A stretch of 37,599 bases of DNA from Candidatus Limnocylindria bacterium (GTDB taxonomy: Bacteria; Chloroflexota; Limnocylindria; Limnocylindrales; CSP1-4): the NCBI GenBank assembly GCA_041486935.1, contig JBGPMJ010000001.1, positions 1 through 37,599 of the forward strand, in the 5' to 3' direction. Each line of letters opens with the position of its first letter. The first letter of the stretch is position 1. Shown here piece by piece: positions 16,145-31,024 of the stretch. Position numbers and translations under genes: made by a program. The notes under the pieces are model-generated. The model made no database searches. It was not told where the DNA came from and saw nothing but the letters and a program-made list of their open reading frames with translations.

Positions 16145-16255
16145 ATCCTCGCGGGCCGCGCCCGCGGTCGATGGGTCGTCCGCGTCGGCGCGTAGGCCCG
16201 GGGTACCATGGCGCCGTGTCCCCGTAGCTCAGTGGACAGAGCAACCGCCTTCTAA
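16145..16255. repeat. right copy of the 111-bp direct repeat (yhdH-tail fragment, spacer, 5' half of the intact tRNA-Arg)
   Basis: See 13090-13200. Both differences fall on synonymous third positions of the yhdH reading frame (CGG/CGA and CGT/CGC). Confidence 0.9.
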
Positions 16256-16293
16256 GCGGAAGGTCGCAGGTTCGAATCCTGCCGGGGGCGCCA
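16218..16293 (+). tRNA. tRNA-Arg (anticodon UCU), CCA encoded
   Basis: Hand-folded. Acceptor GTCCCCG/CGGGGGC, D arm GCTC-AGTGGACA-GAGC, anticodon loop CTTCTAA (anticodon 16251-16253), variable AGGTC, T arm GCAGG-TTCGAAT-CCTGC, discriminator G plus CCA. Confidence 0.9.
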
Positions 16294-17728
16294 TAACAAC
16301 CTCGGGCAAGAGCACAGCCAGCCCATGGTCGTAGGCGGCCGGGGTCAGCCGCGCTCCCACGATCTGTCGCCCCACGACCTCGATCCGCTCGTAGATCGCG
16401 TGCAGCAACTCCGCCTTCGCCTGCGGGACGTCGGCGTGCTGCCAGGTCTCGCCGATGGCCCGCAGCCAGGTGACCGCTCGCTCGGCCGTGACCCCGCCAG
16501 CTGGCGCTTCCAGCAGGTCCGCGAGCCCGGCCCGGAGATGGCCGATCCGCGCGAGGTAGGCGTCGTCGCCGATCCGCCCCGCGACGTGCTCGAGGGCCAG
16601 CTCGCGCATCTGCTTCTCGAGGCGCCTCGTGTCGATCGAGATCGGCCGGCGGGTGGAGGCGAGGACGCCGACGACCTGGGCGATCGTCGCGTCGTCGAGC
16701 TGCATGGTGCTGACCTGGGCGAGGACCGGTCCCTCCCAGGTCACGTCCGGCAGGCGCGCTCGTGGGCCCCACGCCGTGCAAGGCTCGGGATGGAGCTTGC
16801 GATGCTGACCGTTGGCGAAGGTGCCGTCGGAGCGCAATCGTCGTCCGCAGACGCATTCGAGGAGACCGGCGAGCAGATCGACGCGCTCGTGCTGGCGGGG
16901 GCCACCGCCGCGCGCCTTGTTGCGACGGACCTCCTCGGCCCGCGCCCACAGCGCATCGGACACCGGCGGATCGGCGCGCCAGGGGGCGGCTCGGCGCAGC
17001 TCGTCGGGACCGCGGTGACGGCGCATCCAGCCGTTGTAGAGGGGGTTGCGCAGGATCTTCTCGATGCGGCGGACCTTGTAGCCAGTCTCGCGGGCCAGCT
17101 GCTCCGCCGACACGGTGCCTAGGGCGTAGCGGTCGAAGAGCGCCACGGCCCCGTCGATGGCGGCGGGGTCGACCTCGAGCGTGTGCGGCGGCTCGGGTGA
17201 TCGCCGGAAGCCGAGCGGGGGCAGGCCGCCCTGGTCGCCGTACTGGTCGAATTTCGCCGCGTAGCCGTCCGTGATCCGCTCGCCGAGCCGACGGCTGTAG
17301 CGCTCGGAGGCGGCCGACTCGGCGACGAGCTCATCCCAGTCCTGGGGATCGGAGGAGAGGATCCGCCGGTCGCACATGAAGAGGGCCACGCCCACCGGAT
17401 GGAGGCCATCCTCGAGGAGCTCCAGCGTGCGGCGCAGGTTGCGCTGCCACCGATCCGAATAGCCAGCGAGCAAGAGGTCGAAGCCACCAGCACGCGCCGA
17501 CTCGAGCATCGCTGTCATGGTGGGTGAGCGCCAGACCGTCGTGCCCGAGTGCGCCACCTGCCAGACGAGCCCCGTGTCGACGAGCCCATAGCGCTCGATG
17601 GCGCGGTCCTGCTGCTCGCGCTGGCTGCCGGGCCCGAAGCGGTCGTACTGGCCCGGCCTCGACTCGCGGATCCAGCGCGCGGCCCGGAGGCCGCGCACCT
17701 CGTCGATCGAGCGCGGGAGCCGTCTCAT
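16229..17728 (-). CDS. large serine recombinase (integrase)
   Basis: Resolvase-type N-terminus RAARWIRESRPGQ...GSQREQ, YSDRWQRNLR, and E-helix ERYSRRLGERITDG. Recombinase domain EKILRNPLYNGW, Zn-ribbon LECVCGRRL, and a coiled-coil tail. Start at MRRLPRS (17728, ATGA overlap with the upstream ORF). The 609-aa ORF extension is Arg-rich shadow. Confidence 0.85.
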   Translation of the reverse strand: MRRLPRSIDEVRGLRAARWIRESRPGQYDRFGPGSQREQQDRAIERYGLVDTGLVWQVAHSGTTVWRSPTMTAMLESARAGGFDLLLAGYSDRWQRNLRRTLELLEDGLHPVGVALFMCDRRILSSDPQDWDELVAESAASERYSRRLGERITDGYAAKFDQYGDQGGLPPLGFRRSPEPPHTLEVDPAAIDGAVALFDRYALGTVSAEQLARETGYKVRRIEKILRNPLYNGWMRRHRGPDELRRAAPWRADPPVSDALWARAEEVRRNKARGGGPRQHERVDLLAGLLECVCGRRLRSDGTFANGQHRKLHPEPCTAWGPRARLPDVTWEGPVLAQVSTMQLDDATIAQVVGVLASTRRPISIDTRRLEKQMRELALEHVAGRIGDDAYLARIGHLRAGLADLLEAPAGGVTAERAVTWLRAIGETWQHADVPQAKAELLHAIYERIEVVGRQIVGARLTPAAYDHGLAVLLPEVVMAPPAGFEPATFRLEGGCSVH

Positions 17729-17940
17729 GAGGCTCGGCCGCCGTGGAGCTCGGTGATCGGCATGGCCGGCATGTTTGCTCTGTCTCGAGGCAATGCGCAA
17801 GGCAACTCCGCGGGGCCGCCCGGATAGCGGGCGTCGAGCGCCTCGACGTAGCGGGCCAGCGCGACGATGAGCGGGTCGGGATGGCGCGAAAGCGTCCCTG
17901 GCTGGGAGGGCCCGTGATCCAACCCGACGCCCGGGGCCAT
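17725..17940 (-). CDS. small ORF translationally coupled to the serine recombinase
   Basis: Its stop overlaps the recombinase ATG (ATGA at 17725-17728). The plausible segment is DPLIVALARYVEALDARYPGGPAEL. The start at MAPGVG (17940) is a guess. Confidence 0.35.
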   Translation of the reverse strand: MAPGVGLDHGPSQPGTLSRHPDPLIVALARYVEALDARYPGGPAELPCALPRDRANMPAMPITELHGGRAS

Positions 17941-17972
17941 GTCGCCGCCGAGGTGTCCCGTCGCTGCGTTGG

Positions 17973-18221
17973 TCACGGGACCGCCTCCAGCACCGCCACT
18001 GCGGCGGCGACGCAGGGCCCGCAACGGTACCGTTCGTCGGGGGCCAGTGACTCGCCACACGAGCAGCACGTGCCTGGCGGCCGACGGGCGTCCGGCCGGG
18101 CGAGGAAGAGGGGGATAGATCCCTCTGCGTGCACCTGCGGGCGCATGGCGGCGATCCGCCAGGCGACCGCAGGGTCGAGCGCAGGACGATCCTCGATTAG
18201 GAAGCGACGGGCGAGGTCCAA
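17973..18221 (-). CDS. small Cys-rich (Zn-ribbon-like) protein
   Basis: C-terminal CCSCGESLAPDERYRCGPC. The start is uncertain (TTG 18221 or ATG 18146). It lies between the DUF3987 stop and the recombinase operon. Confidence 0.35.
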   Translation of the reverse strand: MDLARRFLIEDRPALDPAVAWRIAAMRPQVHAEGSIPLFLARPDARRPPGTCCSCGESLAPDERYRCGPCVAAAVAVLEAVP

Positions 18222-18276: not shown

Positions 18277-19644
18277 TCAGGCACGCTGCCATACCTCGAC
18301 CGGTCTGCCGCCGGTCGCGCGCGGTTCCACGCGAGCGAGGCCGGCCTCCAGCAGGACGCCGAGCGCGACGTCGACCTGCGGCTCGGAGGCGTGGCGGCCC
18401 AGCAGATCCCGGATCTCGGTGCGCGTGAGCTCGTCGGCCTGACCGAGCGCCCGCAGGATGCGGTCGGCGAGCGGATTGCCGGTCGCCTCACCGAAGAGGA
18501 AGCGCACGGAGCGCTCGGCGTAGCCCCAGACCTCGACGGCCGCCTGGAGGTGCACCGGCTCCACGACCACCGAGCGATCCAGTAGCGCGTAGAGGATCGC
18601 TAGTCTGAGGACGTGGGCCTCGGCCCGCGCCAGCATCGCGCCTACGAGCCCGGGGTGGGCGCGGGAGAGGTCTGCGTAGATGGCCCCCCAGAGTTCACGG
18701 GCGGGCTGGCTCCGCTCGATCCGGCCCTGGGCGCGGGCGAACGCGATCCTGTTGCGCAGCTCGTCCGCCACGAGTTGGACGGGGCGACCCTCGAAGGGTT
18801 CCGGCTCGGGCAGCAGCTTGCTGCGCCGCGCTACCATCACCAGCCAGCGGTTCATGAAGCCGTTAGCGGCCTCGGAGTCGGAGAGTTCGCGGCGCAGCTC
18901 GTCGGCGGTGATGTGGCCGACGGTCGAGACGTGGGCCCCGGTAGCCCGGAGGTGCGTCCCCTTCGTGATCACCGCCAGGTCGCCCCCGTCCCAGGCGTCC
19001 CGCATGATCATCGAGAGGATGCTGCCCTGCCGGCCGGCGACGCGCAGGATGCGAGCGAGCTCGGGCTCCACGACGAGGAGGCGCTTGTCGTTCTCGCCTT
19101 CGTCGGCGACGACCGTCTCGTACCGGGTGACGCGGCCACCCTCGCGCACCGGTTCGAGGCGGGTCGTCGGGTCCCGCACCGCCCATATCACCCCCTCGCC
19201 AGAGCCGAAGCCAGAGTGGATGCGCCGGGCGCAGTAGTCCGGGTCGGCCAACTCGAAGATGCGCCGCACCGGGCTGAAGCTGTCGCCCTTGCGCGCCTTG
19301 GCCGTGTCGCCCACGACCATGACGTTCGTGTTCGTCCCGTGTCGCGTGGCGCCGACCATCGCATGCGGCTCGGGGCCGATCACGGAGCCGAACAGCACGA
19401 GCGTCTGGCCCAGGACGGCGACGGGATCGCCCTCGGTATGGGGATCGATGGCCTCGACGATGCGCCCTGCGAGCCCGTGGTACGCCACCGTGGCCGGGCG
19501 TTCAGGCCATGCCGCCGCACTTCGGTCGCTTCGGTCGCTTTGGTCGCGCAGCCCGTCCGGCCGATCGTCGGCTGAGGGCCGTCTTGCGCCGTGGCGGGCG
19601 CTGCCCAGGCTTTCCCGCGGGTCAGTCGAAGCGGGCCCGTTCAT
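18277..19644 (-). CDS. DUF3987-family protein (YfjI-like, helicase/primase-associated protein of integrative elements)
   Basis: 455 aa. YHGLAGRIVEAIDPHTEGDPVAVLGQTLVLFGSVIG matches the N-terminal signature I associate with DUF3987. The context is an integrative element. Confidence 0.65.
   Translation of the reverse strand: MNGPASTDPRESLGSARHGARRPSADDRPDGLRDQSDRSDRSAAAWPERPATVAYHGLAGRIVEAIDPHTEGDPVAVLGQTLVLFGSVIGPEPHAMVGATRHGTNTNVMVVGDTAKARKGDSFSPVRRIFELADPDYCARRIHSGFGSGEGVIWAVRDPTTRLEPVREGGRVTRYETVVADEGENDKRLLVVEPELARILRVAGRQGSILSMIMRDAWDGGDLAVITKGTHLRATGAHVSTVGHITADELRRELSDSEAANGFMNRWLVMVARRSKLLPEPEPFEGRPVQLVADELRNRIAFARAQGRIERSQPARELWGAIYADLSRAHPGLVGAMLARAEAHVLRLAILYALLDRSVVVEPVHLQAAVEVWGYAERSVRFLFGEATGNPLADRILRALGQADELTRTEIRDLLGRHASEPQVDVALGVLLEAGLARVEPRATGGRPVEVWQRA
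19520..19546. repeat. 3 x 9-bp tandem array CTTCGGTCG / CTTCGGTCG / CTTTGGTCG
   Basis: Read directly from the sequence. It is the reverse complement of the unit at 18249-18275. It lies in the N-terminal coding region of the DUF3987 gene and encodes DRSDRS. Confidence 0.85.
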
Positions 19645-21080: not shown

Positions 21081-21932
21081 CTACCTTGGCGGGAAGGCGG
21101 TCGCGAGGACGCGGATCAGTCGTTCGATGGCCGCCCCATCCAACACCTGCCCATGGGTGATGAGCTCCCGGATGGAGCGCTTCCCCTCGAGGCGCACACC
21201 GCGATAAGACTCCGGCGGCCTGAACAGCGGCCACTCACCCTCGACGAAGCAGAGCACCGGGGTGATCGGGGGCATGACCTCGAGAGCGGCCGACTGGAGG
21301 GCGCGCTCGACCGCTGCGACCTGCCAGCCCATGTTCTCCGCGAGCTCCGAGCAGTCCCGGCGACCGACGTACAGGCGCAGGTCGGTCCTGAAGAGGCCGC
21401 CCCGGTCCCGGATCCGGATGAGGCCTTCGTAGTGCTTCGCATCGACGACGAACACGCCGGCTGGGGCGACGACGAGGTGGTCGATGTTCCCGCTCGTGCC
21501 CGGCACGCTCCGATCGTGGAGCACCCTCACGCCGGGGACCCCGGCGCGCGACTCGGCGAGTTCCTCCTCGCCGAGTGCGCCCCGCGCCCAGGCGCGGGTC
21601 GACTGGGGCTCCCTGGTAATGGCGAGGACAATGCCGCCAAGGCGATCGCCGAGCTGGCCTTTGACCCGTGCCTCACGGCTGGCCCTCTGACGCTCGTACT
21701 CCCGTCGGGCGGATCCCCCGGCCACGCCGCCATCGGCGACCGGGTCCGGTTCGCCACCGGCACCGGTCGGGCACGCCACGCACCGGACGGTCCGGGTGGG
21801 CTGGTGGTAGAGGGCCTCCGTGTTCTTGGCCAATGGCGTTCCGCACAGGACGCAGGTGCCGGCATAGCGCAAGCGCAGGCGCCTGAGCTCCGGCGCGTGT
21901 GCAGCAGGCTCCTCCGGTGGCCTGGGATCCAT
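21081..21932 (-). CDS. NERD domain protein with N-terminal Zn-ribbon
   Basis: GNIDHLVVAPAGVFVVDAKHYEG is a NERD core. N-terminal CVLCGTPL...VRCVACP is Cys-rich. Start at MDPRPPEE (21932). Confidence 0.7.
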   Translation of the reverse strand: MDPRPPEEPAAHAPELRRLRLRYAGTCVLCGTPLAKNTEALYHQPTRTVRCVACPTGAGGEPDPVADGGVAGGSARREYERQRASREARVKGQLGDRLGGIVLAITREPQSTRAWARGALGEEELAESRAGVPGVRVLHDRSVPGTSGNIDHLVVAPAGVFVVDAKHYEGLIRIRDRGGLFRTDLRLYVGRRDCSELAENMGWQVAAVERALQSAALEVMPPITPVLCFVEGEWPLFRPPESYRGVRLEGKRSIRELITHGQVLDGAAIERLIRVLATAFPPR

Positions 21933-22072
21933 CTGGCCCACAAGTCTAGGCACCTGCCTGCCTGACTGCCCGGTGAGAAGTGCGCACGGCGTCCGCACAA
22001 GGCCCACCGCGGCGCGCCGCCGACCCTTGGCACGACGGCCGGTACGATCGAGGCAGTGCTGATCGACGGCCC

Positions 22073-23038
22073 CTACACCCCGATCGCCACCGCCACATCA
22101 GGCCACGTCCGGTCGGCCTCGCCCTCAAGTCGCCGGAGGTAGACGGTGGTCACCGCGAGCGAGCTGTGGTCGAGGAACGCGCTCACCGCCTCGACCGAGG
22201 CACCGGCGTCCCGTCGAAGCTTCGCCGCCGTGTGCCGGAGGACGTGGAGCCCGGTCGGCGCAAGGCGAGCCGCCGCGAGGTACCGGCGGAACCGCCCGTA
22301 GAACGTGCCGCTTGTGATCCCACAGGGGCGCGCCCCAGCCTGCCAGAGCGACCCGTCCGGTTCCATCGTCGCGAGGTCCTTGCCGGCGTCGGCGAGCGTG
22401 GCGCAGATCGCCTCGAAAGCCGGTCGCGGAAGTTCCCGCCGACCCCGCTTGCCGCCCTTGCCGCGGTAGGCGTAGAAGGCCGTCTCGCCCTCGAGGCTGA
22501 GATCGCCGGCCCGCAGGCTCATCACCTCGGCGCGGCGCCGCCCGGTCAGCACGAGGACCAGGAGCATCGCCCGGTCCCGCCGTCCTGCGACGGTGTCAGG
22601 GACGACCGCGAGCAGGCGACGGACCTCATCCGCTGAGTAGCCGCGAGCGACGGAAGGGACGGTCCGTGGGCGCTCAAGCGCGTCGCACGGGTTGGCGATC
22701 ATCAAACCCATTCGGATGCCGAAGCGATAGAAGGAGCTGAGACAGGCGATCCGTGCGCCGACCGTCGCGGCGGATGGCGTCCGACCCGACAGGCCGATGC
22801 CGTGAGCGTAGGCGAGGACGTCCGAGGCGCGGACCCGATCCGGGGTCGTCACCCGGAAGAACGGCCAGAGCATCCGGGCATAGCTCTCGACCGTGCGGGT
22901 CGAGCCTGAGCGGCTGCGTTTCTCTACCAGGAACGCGTACAGGGCCTGGTCCCACGTGGAGCCGCCGCCGGTGGTACGGGCGGGGAGGAGTTGCGGGTTC
23001 ACGGGCGATCTCCTGAGCGAGTGGATCGACCACATCAC
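22073..23038 (-). CDS. tyrosine recombinase / phage-type integrase
   Basis: The catalytic-domain signatures GRRRAEVMSLR, LHVLRHTAA and LDHSSLAVTTVYL (R..HxxR..Y) are present. Confidence 0.85.
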   Translation of the reverse strand: MMWSIHSLRRSPVNPQLLPARTTGGGSTWDQALYAFLVEKRSRSGSTRTVESYARMLWPFFRVTTPDRVRASDVLAYAHGIGLSGRTPSAATVGARIACLSSFYRFGIRMGLMIANPCDALERPRTVPSVARGYSADEVRRLLAVVPDTVAGRRDRAMLLVLVLTGRRRAEVMSLRAGDLSLEGETAFYAYRGKGGKRGRRELPRPAFEAICATLADAGKDLATMEPDGSLWQAGARPCGITSGTFYGRFRRYLAAARLAPTGLHVLRHTAAKLRRDAGASVEAVSAFLDHSSLAVTTVYLRRLEGEADRTWPDVAVAIGV

Positions 23039-23272: not shown

Positions 23273-24544
23273 CTACTTTGTCCAGTAGCCGTCCATTACC
23301 TCGTCGGCGACATTCAGATTGAGGCGTTCGCGCTTGCCAGCCGTGTCCTTCTCCAAGTGGATACCGAGTTCCTTGATTACCTCTGGGAAAGGGCGAACAT
23401 GTGCGAGCCCGTCCTTCGGCGTGACCTCGTAAATGAACGCGCGCTCCTCCCCGTTCCAGGCCTCGCAGATCACGTAGGGGCTGTGCGAGGAGATGAGAAC
23501 TTGACTGGCGGGTGCGCCGTCGCTTGGGAAAGCTACGGATCTCATCGCCTCATAGACGTGCCTAGTCGAGCGCGGCGTTAGGCCGTTCTCGGGCTCCTCG
23601 ATGCAGATGATCGGCTGCCGCGAGGGGTTAGCCAACAAGACAGTCAGGCCGACGAGGGAAAGCGTTCCGTCCGACAGGTTTGCCGCAGCCACGACGCCGC
23701 GCGAGTCGTCGAATCTCGCGGAGAAGCCAACGCGGTCGGGGCCAACGGTGTTGAACTCGAAACCGTCGAACCCATCGACGCTGGACCGCAAGCTGTCGAC
23801 GACTTCGTCCAGGGTGGGGCTCGCTGTCTTGTCCAAGAAGTATAGGACGGTCGGAAGGCCCTCGCCCCGGTAATCGAGGCTCGGAGCCTGAGGGGCGGTC
23901 CCGATCGCGTCGGCACTGTCAGCGCCGCTCGGCCCAGCAACACTCACGTCGGGCAACCGGGACGGCTGTGAAAGGAACTGCGGATTCAACCGGAACTTGC
24001 CGATACGACTGACCCCTCGGGCGACGTGCGTGACAAGCGGGTCGGTCTCTTCGTACTGACCGCTGACCTGAGCGCGACGGATGGCGGCGAATATGCTCTG
24101 GTCGTCGGTTAGGTACCGAATCACACTGCCCAGGGGCGAGGCCTCGAGCTCGGACCTGCTGAAGTGGTCTGTCCCGTTCGAGCCCGACAGCTTCTCGTCG
24201 AAGATCTGGTACCGAGGTGGGTCGGCCGCGCCCGCCACTTGGGCGTAGGAGACGGAGTAGGTCAGGTGTTCCTCGTCAGCCGCTGCCCGAGAGAGGTCGA
24301 CCTCGAATGAGATCCGGGCGGCGGGTGCTGCGCCGTGGCTCTTCCTCGAGCGGAACGAGTACGGTCCCGGACCGAAGGCTTCACTGAGCCGTCCTCGAGA
24401 CACCATCGTGAAGTTGAGGAGCGCGTCGAAGAGGGCCGACTTACCTCCGTTATTCGGACCTACGAAGACTGAGATCGGGTGAAGCCCCACCGACGTTTGC
24501 CGGTGGATCATGAAGTTCTTCACTGAGAAGCGGCGGATGAACAC
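23273..24544 (-). CDS. ABC/SMC-like AAA ATPase (AAA_15/AAA_21 type) with no adjacent partner gene
   Basis: Walker A FVGPNNGGKSALFDAL, signature-like LSDGTLSL, Walker B PIICIEEPENGL and H-loop LISSHSPYV. GC is clearly lower (about 55-58%). Confidence 0.8.
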   Translation of the reverse strand: MFIRRFSVKNFMIHRQTSVGLHPISVFVGPNNGGKSALFDALLNFTMVSRGRLSEAFGPGPYSFRSRKSHGAAPAARISFEVDLSRAAADEEHLTYSVSYAQVAGAADPPRYQIFDEKLSGSNGTDHFSRSELEASPLGSVIRYLTDDQSIFAAIRRAQVSGQYEETDPLVTHVARGVSRIGKFRLNPQFLSQPSRLPDVSVAGPSGADSADAIGTAPQAPSLDYRGEGLPTVLYFLDKTASPTLDEVVDSLRSSVDGFDGFEFNTVGPDRVGFSARFDDSRGVVAAANLSDGTLSLVGLTVLLANPSRQPIICIEEPENGLTPRSTRHVYEAMRSVAFPSDGAPASQVLISSHSPYVICEAWNGEERAFIYEVTPKDGLAHVRPFPEVIKELGIHLEKDTAGKRERLNLNVADEVMDGYWTK

Positions 24545-24943: not shown

Positions 24944-25993
24944 TCAAGCCGCGGCCGCGAGACCCACCGGTCCGGCGGCTCTGGCGGCTTCATCGTGACG
25001 CATCCGGCGGAAGACCTCGTCGCTGATCCGACGTCGCAGCGCGCGGATGGCCTCGGTCTTCGTGTTGCCCAGGGCCCGTCGGTGCTCCAGGTACGTCTTG
25101 CCGGGCCCCTCGCGCTGGAGCTGCGTGATGGCGATCCGGTGGAGCGCCACGTTGAGCTGGCGGTTGCCCGTCCGGCTCAGGCGATGGCGTTCGGTGTTGC
25201 CCGACCAGACCGGCAGCGGGGCACTGCCGTTGTGCCGGGCGAAGGCGGCGCTCGAGCGGAAGCGACCGATGCCGGCCGTCTCGCCGACGAGCTTGGCGGC
25301 GGTCAAGGGCCCGCAGCCGGTGAGGGCCAGCAGGGATGGCGCGAGGTCGGCGACGAGGCGGGCAATCTCCCGTTCCAGGGCGTTGATCGTCGCGGTCAGC
25401 TCGCGGATCCGGACGACCAGTTCGCGGGCGATGCGGGCGACCGTGCCCGGCTGGCCGGCCAGGCGCGCCTCGAGGGCGGTCAGGACGACCGCGCGGTCGA
25501 GAGCGCGGGCCGGCGGCTCCGTTCCCGGGTCGAGTTCGTGGAGGTGCCATCGCAGCCGGTTCTGGGCACGCGTCCGCTCGGCCACGAGATCCTCGCGGTG
25601 GTCGACGAGCAGGCGCACCTCGCGCTCGGGGCCGTCGAGCGTGGCTACCGGCAGGTCGGGCTCTCGGAGCGCAGCCCGGGCGACGGCGAGGGCGTCGATC
25701 GGATCGCTCTTGCCGGGCTCGCGGGAGGAGCACCGGGCCCCGGCCATGAGCTTGGGTGGCACACGCACGACCGCCTCGCCGGCGCAGAGCAGGTCGCTCG
25801 AGAGGCGGCGGCTGAGGTGCCGGCAGTCTTCCAGTGCCCAGCGCCGCTCGGCGAACCGGGCGGCCCAGCGGACGAGCTCGAGGTGGCCCGCGCTGATCGC
25901 CGCCACGGTCTTCTCCGCGAGTTTACGGCCGGTCGCATCGACCGCCACGACGGTGTGGGTGCGCTTGTGCGAATCGACGCCGAGGATGACCAT
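24944..25993 (-). CDS. IS110-family transposase (DEDD recombinase)
   Basis: N-terminus MVILGVDSHKRTHTVVAVDATG. The C-terminal Transposase_20-like region reads LLALTGCGPLTAAKLVGETAGIGRF.. and ..RTGNRQLNVALH. Tandem GGAGG sequences lie upstream of the ATG. Confidence 0.9.
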   Translation of the reverse strand: MVILGVDSHKRTHTVVAVDATGRKLAEKTVAAISAGHLELVRWAARFAERRWALEDCRHLSRRLSSDLLCAGEAVVRVPPKLMAGARCSSREPGKSDPIDALAVARAALREPDLPVATLDGPEREVRLLVDHREDLVAERTRAQNRLRWHLHELDPGTEPPARALDRAVVLTALEARLAGQPGTVARIARELVVRIRELTATINALEREIARLVADLAPSLLALTGCGPLTAAKLVGETAGIGRFRSSAAFARHNGSAPLPVWSGNTERHRLSRTGNRQLNVALHRIAITQLQREGPGKTYLEHRRALGNTKTEAIRALRRRISDEVFRRMRHDEAARAAGPVGLAAAA

Positions 25994-26235
25994 AGCCTCC
26001 GTTGCCTCCTGATCAGGGGTGACGCTCCGGACCGGCCGGTGGACACGCCTGAGTGGGGGCGCTTACCACGCTCCTATGAAGTCACACCGGTCGGTCCACT
26101 CCATGTCCGGCGACCGGCAGATCGGGTGGAGGCCACACGCGTCGGTGGGCAGCCATGCTACGAGCCAAGCCGCCGGACCTCGACAGGGTGACACTCAGAC
26201 CACGCTACACTGCGCCTCGATGGGGGTCGTGAGAG
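25994..26235 (-). ncRNA. candidate IS110 bridge-RNA-encoding leader (5' non-coding end of the IS)
   Basis: About 240 nt of non-coding sequence lie immediately 5' of the transposase. There are local stems, e.g. CCGGTCG (26087-26093) with CGACCGG (26111-26117). The assignment rests on what is known for IS110/IS621. Confidence 0.3.
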
Positions 26236-26238
26236 CTA

Positions 26239-27129
26239 GTGCCGCCGGCTGAACCAGTCCTCGCAACGGCCGGGCAGCTCCGGCTGCTCCCTGCTGAGCC
26301 GCGCCCGCCCCGGGCGCTAGCCCCGCTATTCCGATGGCCGGGCGGCAAGCGTTGGCTCTTACCGCTGCTCAGGGAGCTCGTGCCAGCAGACGTCGGGCGG
26401 TACTATGAGCCGTTCTTCGGCGGTGGCGCCTTGTTTCTGGCCCTGCGCCCGAATGCCGCGACGATCTCGGACCGGAACTCGGCGCTGATGGACTGCTACA
26501 AAGCCATCCGGGACGACCACGCCGAAGTAGCGCGGATCCTCCGCGGGTTCCCGCGGGATCGCGACAGCTACTTCAAGATCCGCTCGAACCTGCCCGAAGA
26601 ACCCTCAGCGCGAGCAGCTCGCCTGATCTACCTAACCACGCTTGCTTTCAACGGCATCTACCGAGTCAATCGTCGTGGTGCATTCAATGTCCCGTATGGA
26701 GGGCGAACCTACGACGACCTAGGCAACGAGGAAATCCTCCGCGCCCATGCCGAAGCATTCGCGGCCGTCGAGATCAAGTCTGGCGACTTTGAGAACGCCG
26801 TGACCGGAGCCAGCGCGGGCGACTTCGTATATCTGGACCCGCCCTACACGGTCACGCATTCAAACAACGGATTCGTCCGGTACAACGATCGAATCTTCTC
26901 CTGGAAGGACCAGCAGCGCATGGCCGACGTTGCTCAGTCGCTGGGTCGGTCAGGATGCACCGTCGTGGTCTCGAACGCGTCTCATCCCTCGATACTCGAT
27001 CTGTATCCGTCCTTCCGTGCGATCAGCGTGACGAGGACCTCCGTGATGGCGGCCACGGCTGGTCGACGCGGTCCCATCCAGGAGCTTGTCCTGACCAATG
27101 CTCCTACCGCGGAGCCAGGTACGACATGA
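26239..27129 (+). CDS. Dam-family (D12 class) N6-adenine DNA methyltransferase
   Basis: FRWPGGKRWLLP, YYEPFFGGGALFL (motif I) and FVYLDPPY (motif IV, DPPY at 26836-26847). GTG start. The stop overlaps the next ATG. Confidence 0.85.
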   Translation: MPPAEPVLATAGQLRLLPAEPRPPRALAPLFRWPGGKRWLLPLLRELVPADVGRYYEPFFGGGALFLALRPNAATISDRNSALMDCYKAIRDDHAEVARILRGFPRDRDSYFKIRSNLPEEPSARAARLIYLTTLAFNGIYRVNRRGAFNVPYGGRTYDDLGNEEILRAHAEAFAAVEIKSGDFENAVTGASAGDFVYLDPPYTVTHSNNGFVRYNDRIFSWKDQQRMADVAQSLGRSGCTVVVSNASHPSILDLYPSFRAISVTRTSVMAATAGRRGPIQELVLTNAPTAEPGTT

Positions 27130-29384
27130 CCGAAGCGGCGCCCACACTCAAGCTCATTTCCGGGTCTGAACTCGAAGCGGAGCTCCGCCTTCGCCGGTCC
27201 GCTTGGCTCTACAAGCGAGTCGCTCCGTCGGACGTTGCTGCGCACGAGGTTGACGGCTGGACAGAGGCGAGAGTCAACAAGAACTCCGTGCGCCTCCAGA
27301 AGGCGAAGCCGATCGACCAGGCGCTTGAGGATGACGTGTGGTCTCTTCTGGCGCGACTCGGCTTCATTCAGCTGAGCCAGGGTCACCGGTTCGTTATACC
27401 CGTCACCAAAGGCCCCGGACAGATCGTGTCGAAGCAGATCGACGTCCTGGCAGCCGATGACGAGACCGCCCTCGTGGTCGAGTGCAAGGCGTCAGCGCCA
27501 GCAAGACCCCGGTCGATGGCAAGGGATCTCGCGGAAGCCTACGCGCTTCGAGGAGCGGTGATATCGGCGCTGCGCCAGCACTACGGGATCAAGAAGAAGA
27601 TCGGCTGGCTCTTCGTGACCCGGGGGATCATTTGGGGTGACAACGATCGTGCTCGGGCGGACGAGTTCAAGATCCGCGTCCTCACTGACAACGATCTCGA
27701 CTACTTCCTCCGCCTGGCTGACCATCTTGGGACCGCCGCGCGCCATCAACTCCAAGCCGAGGTCTTCGGCGACCAGCAGATCGAAGGCCTGAATCGAACA
27801 GTGCCTGCGGTTCGCGGCCGCATCGGAGGCCGCCGTTTCTACCAATTCACAATCGATCCCGACCGTCTGCTCAAGATTGCGTTCATCAGCCACCGTGCGC
27901 GTCTCGATGCCGAGAGCGTCGGAGCCTATCAGCGGATGCTTCGCAAGGGGAGGTTACGCGACATTCGTCGGTACATCGACGAAGGCGGCGTCTTCCCGAC
28001 CAACGTCGTCGTCAACTTCCGAACCAGACGACGCTTCGAACTGAGTGCCGACAAGTCGGACGGTGACGTCGCCCTCGGCACGCTGTATCTCCCGAACACC
28101 TACAAGTCCGCCTGGATCATCGACGGCCAGCACCGTCTCTACGGATTCGTCGGCAGCAAGTGGTCCAAGTCAACGCAGCTTCCCGTGCTCGCCTTCGAAG
28201 CGCTGCCCCCAAGTGAGGAGGCGCGGCTCTTCGTCGACATCAACAACAAGCAGGTGAAGGTCCAGCGAAGTCTGCTCGTGGAACTGATGTCCGAGCTCTA
28301 CTGGGATTCCCCCATCCCGGACGAGGCGTACCACGCGGTGTTGTCGCGGATCGTCGCCGTATTAGGCAAGGACATCGCCTCCCCGTTCCGCGGCCGAATG
28401 GTCCAAGAGGGCGACACCCAGACCGCGGATACCCCGCTCACCGTGACGGCCGTCTACGAGTCATTGAAGAAGTCCAACCTCGTTGGGGCCATTCGTAAGG
28501 GAGTATTCGACCCCGGGCCTCTGTACGACGGCGATGCCCACAAGGCCGTTCGCCGCTCGGTGGACGTCCTCTCCAAATACTTCCGTCTCTTCGCTGATGC
28601 CCTCCCAGACCACTGGTCTCGGGGCAATGGAGAAGGCGGATACCTCTGTACGAACAACGGCGTAAGCGCACTCCTGCTGGTCCTGGGCGCCATCGTCGAC
28701 CACCTAGATCAATTCGGATCGCCGAAGCCATGGCAGGCCACTCCGCAGGAGCTCGAGGACGCCCTCCACCCCTTCGCGGCCCCAATCACCGAGATCTTCA
28801 AGAAAGCCGACCTACCGGAGATTCGCCAATATCGCCGTCAGGTGGGGAACGCCGGCCAGCGGCAAGCTGCGTTCGCCATGATGGAAGCAGTTCAGTCAGA
28901 GAAGCCCGGCTTCAATCCCGAGGGTCTCGCGGAGTTCATCCGGAGCCAGGATCAGACAGGCACGAACACAGCACGCCAGCTCATGCCCGAGCTTCAGCTC
29001 ACGATCCACGACGCCACGATGACATTGCTCCGCAGTCTTTTCGGACATGACGAGAGTGGTTGGTGGCGTAAGGGGGTCCCCGAGAAGGTCCGGACGGAGG
29101 TCGCGGCGCGTCGTGAGACCAACCCTGAGGGTGGCGCCTACGACCAGTTCTTCGAGCTGCTCGACTATCGCTCGATTGCTGCGGCGAACTGGGATTCCTT
29201 CGATCCTTATTTCGCTTTCGGCCCTGGCAAGGGCAAGGAGAACCAGCTCGCATGGTTCGGTAAGCTCGGCGCGATCCGGAATCGCATTGCCCATCCGGAA
29301 CGGGGGACCGTATCTGAGGAGGAGCTGGCCTTCATCGAGGCGCTGGCTGATCATTTCGAGAAGGTTGCCGCGCCGCTCCTCTAG
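27126..29384 (+). CDS. 752-aa multidomain protein: PD-(D/E)xK-like N-terminus, DGQHR (DndB/ParB-like) domain, C-terminal HEPN (Rx4H)
   Basis: IDVLAADDETALVVECK (27441-27488). AYQRMLRKGRL..FPTNVVVNF, IIDGQHRLYG (DGQHR 28122-28136) and FVDINNKQV. GAIRNRIAHPERG (RNRIAH 29277-29294). ATG 27126 overlaps the methylase TGA (ATGA). Confidence 0.8.
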   Translation: MTEAAPTLKLISGSELEAELRLRRSAWLYKRVAPSDVAAHEVDGWTEARVNKNSVRLQKAKPIDQALEDDVWSLLARLGFIQLSQGHRFVIPVTKGPGQIVSKQIDVLAADDETALVVECKASAPARPRSMARDLAEAYALRGAVISALRQHYGIKKKIGWLFVTRGIIWGDNDRARADEFKIRVLTDNDLDYFLRLADHLGTAARHQLQAEVFGDQQIEGLNRTVPAVRGRIGGRRFYQFTIDPDRLLKIAFISHRARLDAESVGAYQRMLRKGRLRDIRRYIDEGGVFPTNVVVNFRTRRRFELSADKSDGDVALGTLYLPNTYKSAWIIDGQHRLYGFVGSKWSKSTQLPVLAFEALPPSEEARLFVDINNKQVKVQRSLLVELMSELYWDSPIPDEAYHAVLSRIVAVLGKDIASPFRGRMVQEGDTQTADTPLTVTAVYESLKKSNLVGAIRKGVFDPGPLYDGDAHKAVRRSVDVLSKYFRLFADALPDHWSRGNGEGGYLCTNNGVSALLLVLGAIVDHLDQFGSPKPWQATPQELEDALHPFAAPITEIFKKADLPEIRQYRRQVGNAGQRQAAFAMMEAVQSEKPGFNPEGLAEFIRSQDQTGTNTARQLMPELQLTIHDATMTLLRSLFGHDESGWWRKGVPEKVRTEVAARRETNPEGGAYDQFFELLDYRSIAAANWDSFDPYFAFGPGKGKENQLAWFGKLGAIRNRIAHPERGTVSEEELAFIEALADHFEKVAAPLL

Positions 29385-29660
29385 CTGTGATGCGGCGCAG
29401 ACGACGGCGAGGCCCCCTCTTGGCTGTTGGGCACACGATGGAAGCATAGTGTTGGGACTGAGCGCGAGATCGCGGTCATTACCGGTCGACGCCGCTCTTG
29501 ATGTCGGCGGCGACTGCGCCGACGCGGCGCCGGGCGACACCCCTCGGCTGGCCGGCGAACGATCGCGTTCACCCGCGATCACCAAGCCTCACTGCGTAGT
29601 TGCGCCCTTGCCACCCGAGGTGACACGGGACCAACTACTCTGGTGTCACGGGGAGGGAGC

Positions 29661-29981
29661 GTGGTGACGGACCCACAGCTCGAGCGCCGCTTCGACGCGG
29701 CGATGCTCGACATCTATCACGAGGCGTCGCGCCTTGGCTACCGCCCGACGCGCTTCCTCGAGATGGTGCGCGAACACGGCGGGGTCGAGGCGGCACACCT
29801 GTTGCTCGCCAACCGCGAGGCCCAGTCAGGACTGACCGAGTTGTGGCTGCTCGGGAGACCAGACTTCTCGATGGAACACCTCGTCTTGTCGGACGAGTTC
29901 GCCTTGCTCTTCTCGGACGAGGAGCGTCGGACGGCACGGGAACGCTTGGAAGTGATCTTGACCCCTCGGGGGCGCGCATGA
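29661..29981 (+). CDS. small helical protein of unknown function
   Basis: GGGAGGGAG precedes in-frame GTG codons at 29661 and 29664. The composition is balanced (RFDAAMLDIYHEASRLGYRPTRFLEMVREHGGVEAAHLLL..). The stop overlaps the next ATG (ATGA 29978-29981). Confidence 0.6.
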   Translation: MVTDPQLERRFDAAMLDIYHEASRLGYRPTRFLEMVREHGGVEAAHLLLANREAQSGLTELWLLGRPDFSMEHLVLSDEFALLFSDEERRTARERLEVILTPRGRA

Positions 29982-31024
29982 CCGCCATCTGGGAGAAGGC
30001 CGAGGGTGGCTGGAGGACGCTCGTGCCGGCGGGCTTTCCCGACGAGGCCGCGCTGCACGGGTTGGTCGAAGATGCGCCGGAACTTCTGCCGCTGTCAGGC
30101 GCAGCGCGCCTGACAGTGATCGGGCGCGAGGTACCCATCGGGCCTTGGTACGCCGATCTCGTGGCGATCGAGCCGGACGGTCGCGTCGCGATTATCGAGG
30201 TCAAGCTCGCGAAGAACAACGAGGCCCGCCGCGCCGTCGTTGCCCAGGTGCTCTCCTATGCGGCGTTTCTTCGTGGCACTGGGCGCGAGAGCTTCGAGCA
30301 CGACCTGGTCGGACCGTACCTGCACGCCAAGGGCTGGCCCAGTCTGGCCGAGGCGGTCCGCGCGACGACGCAGGACGCCTCGTTCGATGCCGACGCACTT
30401 GCGTCCGGGATCGATCGCAGCCTCGAGCTTGGCGCGTTTCGTCTCGTGCTCGTCCTCGACGACGCTCCACCAGAGCTCGTGCGCCTGGTCGGTTACCTGG
30501 AGCTCATCGGCGAGCACCTCGTGATTGACCTCATCACGGTGACGTCCTACGACGTGGGCGACCGCCAGATCCTCGTCCCGCAGCGCGTCGAACCTGGGCG
30601 GCAGGCGGACATGCAACCGCTCGCCAAGACAGCAGCGGCGGCGGACGCCGTGGCAGATGGCGGTGCTGTCTTCGAGGAGATGATCAAGACCGCGCCGGCA
30701 GACCGTCGTCCTCTCCTGACCCAGTTGCTCCAATGGGCCCGTGACCTCGAGCACGAGAAGCTCGTGCGGCTATTCTCGTACCGCGGCAAGCAGCAGACGT
30801 CGTTGCTGCCACGCCTCCAGCCGGAACAGGTCGGACTCGTCTCGATCTGGCAGAACGGCGGGATGTCGCTCTGGCGTAGCGTCTTCGAGCGCCACGCACC
30901 TGCCTTCATCGAGCGGGTCGAGGCGATCACGGGCGTGCCGATGGGGTTTGGGACCAGCGCCGGCACGGTCACACCCGAGCTGCTCGCGATCCTCACAGAG
31001 GCGTACCGGGAAGCAGCGAAGTAG
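29978..31024 (+). CDS. NucS/DUF91-like PD-(D/E)xK nuclease family protein
   Basis: FPDEAALHGLVEDAPELL...YADLVAIEPDGRVAIIEVKLAKNNEARRAVVAQVLSYAAFL gives a D..ExK core followed by a Q..Y helix, as in NucS-type nuclease domains. Confidence 0.65.
   Translation: MTAIWEKAEGGWRTLVPAGFPDEAALHGLVEDAPELLPLSGAARLTVIGREVPIGPWYADLVAIEPDGRVAIIEVKLAKNNEARRAVVAQVLSYAAFLRGTGRESFEHDLVGPYLHAKGWPSLAEAVRATTQDASFDADALASGIDRSLELGAFRLVLVLDDAPPELVRLVGYLELIGEHLVIDLITVTSYDVGDRQILVPQRVEPGRQADMQPLAKTAAAADAVADGGAVFEEMIKTAPADRRPLLTQLLQWARDLEHEKLVRLFSYRGKQQTSLLPRLQPEQVGLVSIWQNGGMSLWRSVFERHAPAFIERVEAITGVPMGFGTSAGTVTPELLAILTEAYREAAK

Follow-up and report, generated by a model that had tools for sequence, protein, structure and literature searches.

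A Dam-family methylase gene overlapping the gene for a predicted three-domain DGQHR protein in a Limnocylindria genome: a candidate restriction-modification-like module

The window considered here is the whole stretch of 37,599 nucleotides at positions 1 to 37,599 (forward strand) of contig JBGPMJ010000001.1, from the assembly GCA_041486935.1 of a Candidatus Limnocylindria bacterium. It contains a gene, called the effector gene below, for a protein in which an earlier note on this DNA recognised a PD-(D/E)xK core, a DGQHR (ParB/DndB-like) domain and an R-x4-H motif of the HEPN type, and which was suggested there to be a sensor-effector able to act on both DNA and RNA. Directly 5' of it is an overlapping methylase gene that the earlier note did not mention. 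The methylase and the 752 amino acid effector are read here as a two-gene restriction-modification (R-M)-like defence module, with a mechanism proposed below; this reading is favoured at slightly better than an even chance. Its observed basis is the overlap of the two genes, three conserved domains in which the signature residues are intact, and the exchangeable modification-type partners of the family.

The overlapping gene pair

The gene pair consists of the following features.

26239..27129, + strand: Dam-family (D12 class) N6-adenine DNA methyltransferase, 296 amino acids (PF02086, TIGR00571, MTase_II)
27126..27129, + strand: ATGA, overlap of the methylase stop codon and the effector start codon (read from the sequence)
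27126..29384, + strand: effector gene, PD-(D/E)xK + DGQHR (ParB-like) + predicted HEPN (translation, profiles, model and conservation)

In the translation of the window, the effector is a single uninterrupted frame at 27126-29384 (+) of 752 codons and a stop. A longer version of this frame, starting from an in-frame ATG at 26955, was rejected in favour of the start at 27126. The latter is preferred because it shares the four letters ATGA (27126-27129) with the TGA stop of the upstream open reading frame, because the gene call of the JGI on an identical metagenome contig (JGI 3300052992) uses it, and because it coincides with the N-termini of 40 aligned homologues.

The methylase is matched by PF02086 (E 4.5e-46) and by the PADLOC model MTase_II (E 3.3e-70), and scores 194.5 bits against TIGR00571 'dam', the cutoff of which is 114.85. 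Its DPPY and FGGG motifs are intact in the sequence. The ATGA overlap implies one operon and translational coupling of the methylase and the effector. An adjacent methylase with intact motifs, conserved across taxa, as is looked for in a Type II-like R-M system, is present. In this context the 'sensor-effector' of the earlier note narrows to the hypothesis of a restriction half of an R-M-like module.

Domains of the effector

The effector was divided into domains as listed here.

27126..27311, + strand: N-terminal alpha/beta subdomain, residues 1-62 (secondary structure of the model and conservation)
27312..27770, + strand: PD-(D/E)xK nuclease domain, residues 63-215 (Foldseek, weak profiles and conservation)
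27327-27329, 27441-27443 and 27480-27488, + strand: putative active site, E68, D106 and E119-C-K121
27432-27434 and 27486-27488, + strand: residues 103 and 121, which depend on the partner type
27801..28694, + strand: DGQHR / ParB-Srx-like domain, residues 226-523 (TIGR03187, PF14072 and conservation), with the motifs Y268-Q-R270, DGQHR at residues 333-337 (28122-28136) and FxxxN, F369-N373
28695..28955, + strand: variable helical connector, residues 524-610 (model and conservation)
28956..29381, + strand: putative Swt1-like HEPN domain, all-helical, residues 611-752 (PF18731 in homologues, PDC-M34B and conservation), with a WW-x4-P-x3-R motif at residues 646-656
29277-29294, + strand: HEPN motif, R718-x4-H723

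The conservation of individual residues was taken from 40 homologues with 34-86% identity to the effector and from a second set of about 80 genome loci. All 40 homologues share E68, C120, Y268-Q269-R270, D333-G334-Q335-H336-R337, N373 and Q376, and towards the C-terminus W646, W647, P652, R656, R718 and H723. Most of these residues are nearly invariant in the genome loci as well, with W646, W647, P652 and R656 varying in the D12-linked clades. D106, D111, E119, T165 and N167 are conserved in at least 90% of the 40 homologues, and N719 is variable. The DGQHR core is the best-conserved segment of the effector and the helical connector is the least conserved.

All of the peptides quoted in the earlier note are found at, or no more than one residue from, the positions that were given for them. 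The D...E-x-K core, IDVLAADDETALVVECK, is present and occupies residues 105-121 rather than 106-121, one residue off. In the DGQHR domain YQRMLRKGRL starts at residue 268, FPTNVVVNF at 290, IIDGQHRLYG at 331 and FVDINNKQV at 369. Upstream of the R-x4-H motif is GWWRKGVPEKVR, from residue 645; the motif itself is within AIRNRIAHP at residues 716-724. Such short motifs are not significant by themselves, and two of the three are weak alone. Chance alone would give R-x4-H about 1.3 times in this protein, and it is observed twice, with the copy at residue 636 not conserved; for [DE]xK the figures are about 4.6 expected and two observed. The motifs are counted as real because they are conserved among the homologues.

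The assignment of the DGQHR domain is unambiguous on sequence. TIGR03187 matches residues 228-523 at 161 bits (E 4.8e-47) with a cutoff of 58.85, and Pfam DndB (PF14072) matches at 50.9 bits (E 1.6e-13) with a cutoff of 29.1, the latter family being matched also by all 40 homologues. The DGQHR sequence, the QR pair and F369-N373 are invariant in the 40 homologues, and equally so in those of the roughly 80 genome loci from which this region could be retrieved. Weak Foldseek matches of the domain are to PadC, ParB-CDP and BrxU. The domain is presumed to be a nucleoside triphosphate (NTP)-binding switch.

For the PD-(D/E)xK domain much of the evidence is structural. An AlphaFold2 model of the effector, built from 40 sequences, has a predicted local distance difference test score (pLDDT) of 87.5 and a predicted template modelling score of 0.73. 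In this model the N-terminal domain has the canonical alpha-beta-beta-beta-alpha-beta core of the PD-(D/E)xK topology, with helices at residues 63-77 and 132-153 and strands at 89-96, 99-110, 114-128 and 158-169. E68 is placed in the first helix, D106 at the start of a strand and E119-C-K121 in the next strand, as expected of such a nuclease. When the whole chain was compared with the PDB using Foldseek, the best match was Cdn1 (9u49, E 5.3e-4, probability 1.00); other leading matches were VC1899 (1xmx), Card1 (6xl1), AF1548 (1y88), the small subunit of R.BspD6I (2p14), Can2 and McrC. These best matches are all PD-(D/E)xK nuclease domains. Profile matches of the effector to this fold are weak, at E 1.5e-4 for the PADLOC model CARF_PDDEXK and E 0.064 for Card1_endonuc (PF09002), where the score of 13.3 bits does not reach the gathering threshold of 26.4 for the Card1-like family. 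Among the 40 homologues there are weak matches to Hjc in 22 and to Card1_endonuc in 9. E68, D106 and E119 remain conserved at 90% or more even where residue 121 is threonine.

The subdomain preceding the nuclease (residues 1-62) has invariant residues at W45 and K61 and is without a family match. It may contact DNA. The presence of a RAMA domain, a reader of N6-methyladenine, was considered for this region on the basis of PMC4738411 and was rejected, there being no Pfam match to it in the effector or in the 40 homologues.

The C-terminal domain is assigned largely through relatives of the effector. PF18731 (HEPN_Swt1) matches 22 of the 40 homologues at E<=0.1, and two of these exceed its gathering score of 27.5 bits (P0094 with 28.6 bits and P0047 with 27.6 bits). 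Other models of the HEPN clan, HEPN_RiboL-PSP, DUF4145 and HEPN_Apea, match the same C-terminal region sporadically among the homologues. In the effector itself residues 637-738 are matched by the PADLOC model PDC-M34B (E 3.4e-5), and the last 140 or so residues, modelled in isolation, are all-alpha with a pLDDT of 93. R718 and H723 are invariant in a C-terminal alignment of 69 sequences, and in the 85 loci described below there is one possible exception (L037). A HEPN domain appears to be the best assignment available for this region, and is the least secure of the three.

The architecture of three domains in one polypeptide, as it was put forward in the earlier note, is supported. The DGQHR claim is borne out by two family models above their cutoffs, and the PD-(D/E)xK claim by the modelled topology, the Foldseek matches and the conserved E68, D106 and E119. 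Conservation of the motif residues among homologues holds for all three domains, with the exception of K121. The effector is taken here as a putative DNase and RNase.

Partner genes, proposed mechanism and alternatives

The effector has 703 homologues in the databases, and 537 relatives were detected in GTDB species genomes, across many bacterial phyla and several archaeal lineages. Among the groups with relatives are Chloroflexota, Pseudomonadota, Acidobacteriota, Desulfobacterota, Spirochaetia, Bacillota, Thermoplasmata, Methanobacteriota and Woesearchaeota. Plasmid-borne homologues are present on pNL1 of Novosphingobium aromaticivorans (39% identity, full-length) and on an Agrobacterium plasmid. 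No full-length homologue was found in the phage genomes searched, only isolated DGQHR domains.

The genes next to the effector were compared in 85 loci, 80 of them from GTDB species genomes and several from metagenomes and plasmids (individual loci are cited by L numbers). The flanking open reading frames were clustered, and the clusters identified using Pfam, NCBIfam and PADLOC, with the following result.

32 of 85 loci: D12/Dam methylase, 8 upstream of the effector (gaps of -20 to +11 nucleotides) and 23 downstream on the same strand (gaps of 2-124 nucleotides)
10 of 85 loci: MT-A70 methylase, directly upstream of the effector
40 of 85 loci: radical-SAM protein of about 540 amino acids and/or GHKL ATPase of about 520 amino acids, adjacent to the effector, with both genes in most of these loci
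3 of 85 loci: no partner detected, two of these being on very short contigs and the third being L079

Altogether 42 of the 85 loci have a methylase next to the effector; these methylases are of two families, and both gene orders occur. No conserved neighbours other than the modification-type partner were found among the clusters of flanking open reading frames in the 85 loci. When the effectors are placed in a neighbour-joining tree, the type of partner switches several times, which fits a reader or effector that is paired with different writers. The MT-A70-linked clade (Chloroflexota, Dehalococcoidia) is the sister of the clade to which the effector itself belongs.

The radical-SAM protein has a CxxxCxxC motif conserved at 90% or more and weak matches to RimO-like and B12-radical-SAM-like families. 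The GHKL ATPase belongs to HATPase_c_3 and its N-box and DxGxG are conserved. Neither protein is matched by a PADLOC model. Many of these loci also have a short DGQHR protein, and some have a PIN_8 protein. Examples of this type of locus are L026:10406-12034 (+), L057:15084-16643 (-), L049:13549-14592 (-), L062:14564-16537 (+), L009, which is pNL1, and L010. They may represent an undescribed DNA-modification module based on radical-SAM chemistry.

A second methylase, of the N6_N4 type (PF01555), is found a few kb from some of the D12-linked modules (5 loci, for example L004:11906-12817 (-) and L011:10947-11948 (-)). This methylase may be part of a different R-M system on that island.

Taken as an R-M-like pair, the two proteins could work as follows. 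The methylase would mark the DNA of the host at N6 of adenine, with GATC as a possible site, and the effector would inspect DNA and recognise that which is unmodified. Binding of ATP or GTP by the DGQHR/ParB-like domain would then act as a switch or clamp, uniting two protomers, by which the PD-(D/E)xK domain (E68, D106, E119 and K121) would be licensed to cut DNA. Characterised HEPN members act as dimers with a composite R-x4-H site. The HEPN domain of the effector would need the dimer for the same reason, and could serve as a second-line RNase on the RNA of the invader or of the host, in the manner of PrrC, when restriction is engaged or overwhelmed. The module is probably an R-M-type defence with an unusual dual DNase/RNase effector, which is probably gated by NTP.

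Several observations weigh against this reading. About half of the family has no methylase and has the radical-SAM/GHKL pair instead, and for this reason the R-M logic is an extrapolation. The homologue of L079 (L079:7890-10226) stands alone between gyrA and a NAD(P)HX repair gene; where the family usually has K or R at 103 and D at 111, it has M103 and I111, and it may be decaying. Residue 121 is lysine in nearly all methylase-linked members, the effector among them, but this catalytic lysine is not universal in the family. Most radical-SAM/GHKL-linked members have T121 together with R103 (RQxD...ECT), as against K103 and K121 (KQxD...ECK) in those linked to a methylase. The effector itself is below the Pfam thresholds for PD-(D/E)xK families. 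In a count of 4-bp palindromes, GATC is not depleted in the window (observed/expected 0.99). Full-text literature searches found no experimental study of any member of the family.

The C-terminal domain adds to these points. The effector itself is below the Pfam HEPN thresholds and has no match to PF18731 at E<=1. Foldseek searches of the PDB with the isolated C-terminal model returned generic helical bundles, the HEPN entry 4nqf being 18th (E 2.4), and a search of BFVD with the same model returned nothing. Profile searches of PDB sequences, using both full-length and C-terminal alignments, gave nothing significant; the KdpB and Med8 entries among their results were dismissed as chance matches, and the HEPN nuclease HepS (9oij) is matched only over the motif segment R-N-x-x-A-H and non-significantly, at E 0.53. 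The HEPN claim in the earlier note is backed by the invariance of R718 and H723 together with the PF18731 matches in homologues; a HEPN fold was not recovered by the structure searches.

The same evidence bears on a broader proposal and on three rival explanations. The family as a whole is possibly a modular reader-effector of the modification state of DNA that has been coupled repeatedly to different writers, these being the Dam-type methylases, the MT-A70 methylases and the radical-SAM and GHKL proteins. This is suggested tentatively, and with clearly less confidence than the R-M-like reading of the pair in the window. The loss of the ExK lysine in a large clade suggests that the DNase is not always essential, and this would suit an abortive infection system, in which the HEPN RNase is the main effector, the PD-(D/E)xK and DGQHR domains mainly sense DNA or nucleotides, and the methylase is an antidote or self-marker that keeps the toxin silent, with the infected cell being killed or arrested in place of restriction of the invading DNA. 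Outside the DGQHR core no residues are conserved more strictly than R718 and H723, R-M-linked HEPN proteins have been proposed to be suicidal RNases (PMC3710099), and Card1, Can2 and Cdn1, to which the N-terminal domain is closest in structure, are collateral nucleases of abortive systems. However, E68, D106 and E119 are retained in the members with T121, close association with ordinary Type II-like methylases is the hallmark of restriction, and the HEPN assignment is the weakest of the three. Abortive infection is regarded as rather improbable.

Lower still is the likelihood of a role on the modification side, as an accessory or regulator like DndB or DpdB, with the flanking nuclease-like domains serving as binding or regulatory modules. 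The only characterised DGQHR proteins do work on that side and not in restriction, DndB as an ATP-modulated repressor of dnd and DpdB as an ATPase required for preQ0 insertion (PMC4507180, PMC10853773, PMC12839542), which is itself a further point against the R-M-like reading, and the best named profile matches of the effector are to DpdB (96.8 bits) and DndB. These scores are nevertheless far below the equivalog cutoffs of 300 and 328 bits, and catalytic residues are conserved in both of the flanking domains. A helper of this kind is not required by methylases of the Dam and MT-A70 families, and the radical-SAM/GHKL loci often have a separate short DGQHR protein that is able to fill the role. 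It is very unlikely that the effector is instead a Type IV-like, modification-dependent nuclease that attacks foreign modified DNA next to an independent or orphan methylase. The characterised fusions of a ParB-like NTPase with a nuclease, GmrSD, BrxU and SspE, do sense modified DNA (PMC4619093), and there is a weak Foldseek match to BrxU (7p9m, E 0.8). In contrast, the start and stop codons of the two genes overlap, and a methylase from one of two unrelated families, in either order, is adjacent in the 42 loci noted above, which is not expected of an unrelated neighbour. With Pfam, neither DUF262 nor DUF1524/HNH is found in the effector.

Lysine at both positions 103 and 121 is kept by four radical-SAM-linked members (L041, L047, L051 and L074).

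Relation to known systems and to the surrounding island

The principle of the fusion is already on record computationally. In Table 1 of the computational catalogue of Anantharaman et al. 2013 (PMC3710099) there is a ParB protein (Saro_3948) fused to a Swt1-like HEPN domain, and Makarova et al. (PMC3632139) describe a DndB ParB-like domain fused to HEPN, as well as the related COG1479/DUF262 family of ParB proteins, which is often fused to HNH, PD-(D/E)xK and HEPN nucleases. The Saro_3948 type of fusion resembles the effector in having a ParB fold with a Swt1/Abi2-type HEPN domain containing R-x4-H, and in being among the R-M-linked HEPN proteins. The catalogue entry differs in that it makes no mention of an N-terminal PD-(D/E)xK domain, of methylase partners or of a mechanism. 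The identity of the pNL1 homologue with Saro_3948 was not confirmed, the supplementary text of PMC3710099 lacking that entry. The three-domain architecture with methylase partners was not found described in full-text literature searches, and no PADLOC model covers the whole effector.

Public databases label the family 'DGQHR domain-containing protein' or, wrongly, 'DndB'. The label 'DNA sulfur modification protein DndB' on identical or near-identical proteins is misleading, because the equivalog cutoffs are missed by a wide margin and because the genes of the system are absent. DndB proper (TIGR03233) was rejected at 26.6 bits with no dndACDE nearby, the neighbours being the Dam methylase, IS110 and an ATPase. 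DpdB (NF041060) was likewise rejected, there being no dpdA/dpdC, TGT-like or DUF328 genes nearby. The effector shares with DndB and DpdB the DGQHR family and the link to DNA-modification genes. Those proteins bind ATP or GTP, as has been reported for a DndB-like ParB-fold protein with both nucleotides (bioRxiv 10.1101/2025.10.10.680097). The effector differs from them in its two extra nuclease-type domains.

SspE and GmrSD/BrxU also couple a ParB-like NTPase to a nuclease (PMC4619093, PMC10853773). In common with the effector they have a ParB/Srx-fold NTP-binding domain (DGQQR or DGQHR, QR pair and FxxxN) and a DNA nuclease in one chain, and they read the modification state of DNA (PMC4619093, PMC10853773). 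The nuclease of the effector is, however, PD-(D/E)xK and not HNH, its ParB branch is DGQHR/DndB and not DUF262, and a HEPN-like domain is added. Its adenine methylase partner suggests an attack on unmodified rather than modified DNA. Membership of the GmrSD/SspE group was rejected, since a Pfam search of the effector finds neither DUF262 nor DUF1524.

HEPN domains have been reported in fusions with restriction nucleases and never with methylases, and these fusions were proposed to be back-up RNases like PrrC, by analogy with PrrC-EcoprrI (PMC3710099). PrrC-EcoprrI and RloC are alike in concept, a HEPN RNase being coupled to restriction as a second line, but there it is a separate ABC-ATPase-HEPN protein on a Type I enzyme. 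In the effector the putative RNase and the putative restriction nuclease form one polypeptide, in which the place of the ABC ATPase is taken by a ParB fold that binds NTP. Card1, Can2, Cdn1 and VC1899 are the best structural matches for residues 63-215 or thereabouts, with the same E...D...ExK arrangement; the effector lacks a CARF sensor domain and is not linked to cyclic oligoadenylate signalling. Type II systems with a Dam-family methylase (for example DpnII/MboI) have adjacent methylase and PD-(D/E)xK-type nuclease genes on the same strand, as is the case here. They differ in that the nuclease of the effector is within a three-domain chain, probably regulated by NTP, with an RNase-type domain, and has no similarity to the DpnII or MboI endonucleases.

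If the R-M-like reading is correct, the module is a very widespread one, with at least 537 relatives in species-level bacterial and archaeal genomes. It would provide a compact two-gene system for studying how a ParB-fold NTP switch controls nucleases, would allow the 2013 prediction of a back-up RNase for restriction-fused HEPN domains to be examined, and would show how one effector adapts to different modification partners. Should the reader-effector proposal for the family hold, this would be the first restriction-type enzyme with NTP-gated DNA cleavage and a HEPN RNase in one chain, and the sister systems would be a sign of a DNA modification, so far undescribed and dependent on a radical-SAM enzyme, by which self and non-self are marked. 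The radical-SAM/GHKL systems could in this way reveal new DNA modification chemistry. Annotations that place the effector gene in a phosphorothioation system should be corrected.

By its look, the module sits on an integrated island with defence genes. The G+C content falls from about 72% to 62-67% between about 23 and 33 kb. Upstream of the module the island-like stretch contains the following.

16218-16293: tRNA-Arg(tct), start of the island-like stretch
16229-18058, - strand: serine recombinase
18277-19644, - strand: DUF3987 protein
21081-22007, - strand: NERD nuclease
22073-23038, - strand: tyrosine integrase
23273-24544, - strand: AAA_21/AAA_15 ATPase, resembling PADLOC HEC-01A/AriA
24944-25993, - strand: IS110 transposase

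A search for direct repeats flanking the island gave only short chance matches, and a scan of 25900-29900 for promoters and terminators gave nothing useful. In the palindrome count made over the window (1-37599), the depleted 4-bp sequences are CTAG (observed/expected 0.43) and TGCA (0.65), which have no evident link to the module.

Downstream of the effector are two further open reading frames.

29661-29981: open reading frame of 106 amino acids, preceding the next
29978-31024, + strand: open reading frame of 348 amino acids, no Pfam match, matched by PADLOC PDC-S11 (candidate defence) at E 2.2e-13

These open reading frames (29661-31024) were rejected as members of the module, since they are kept beside the effector only in near-identical contigs. 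A locus in Mycobacterium abscessus subsp. massiliense (PMC9248903) may carry the same module on a similar island.

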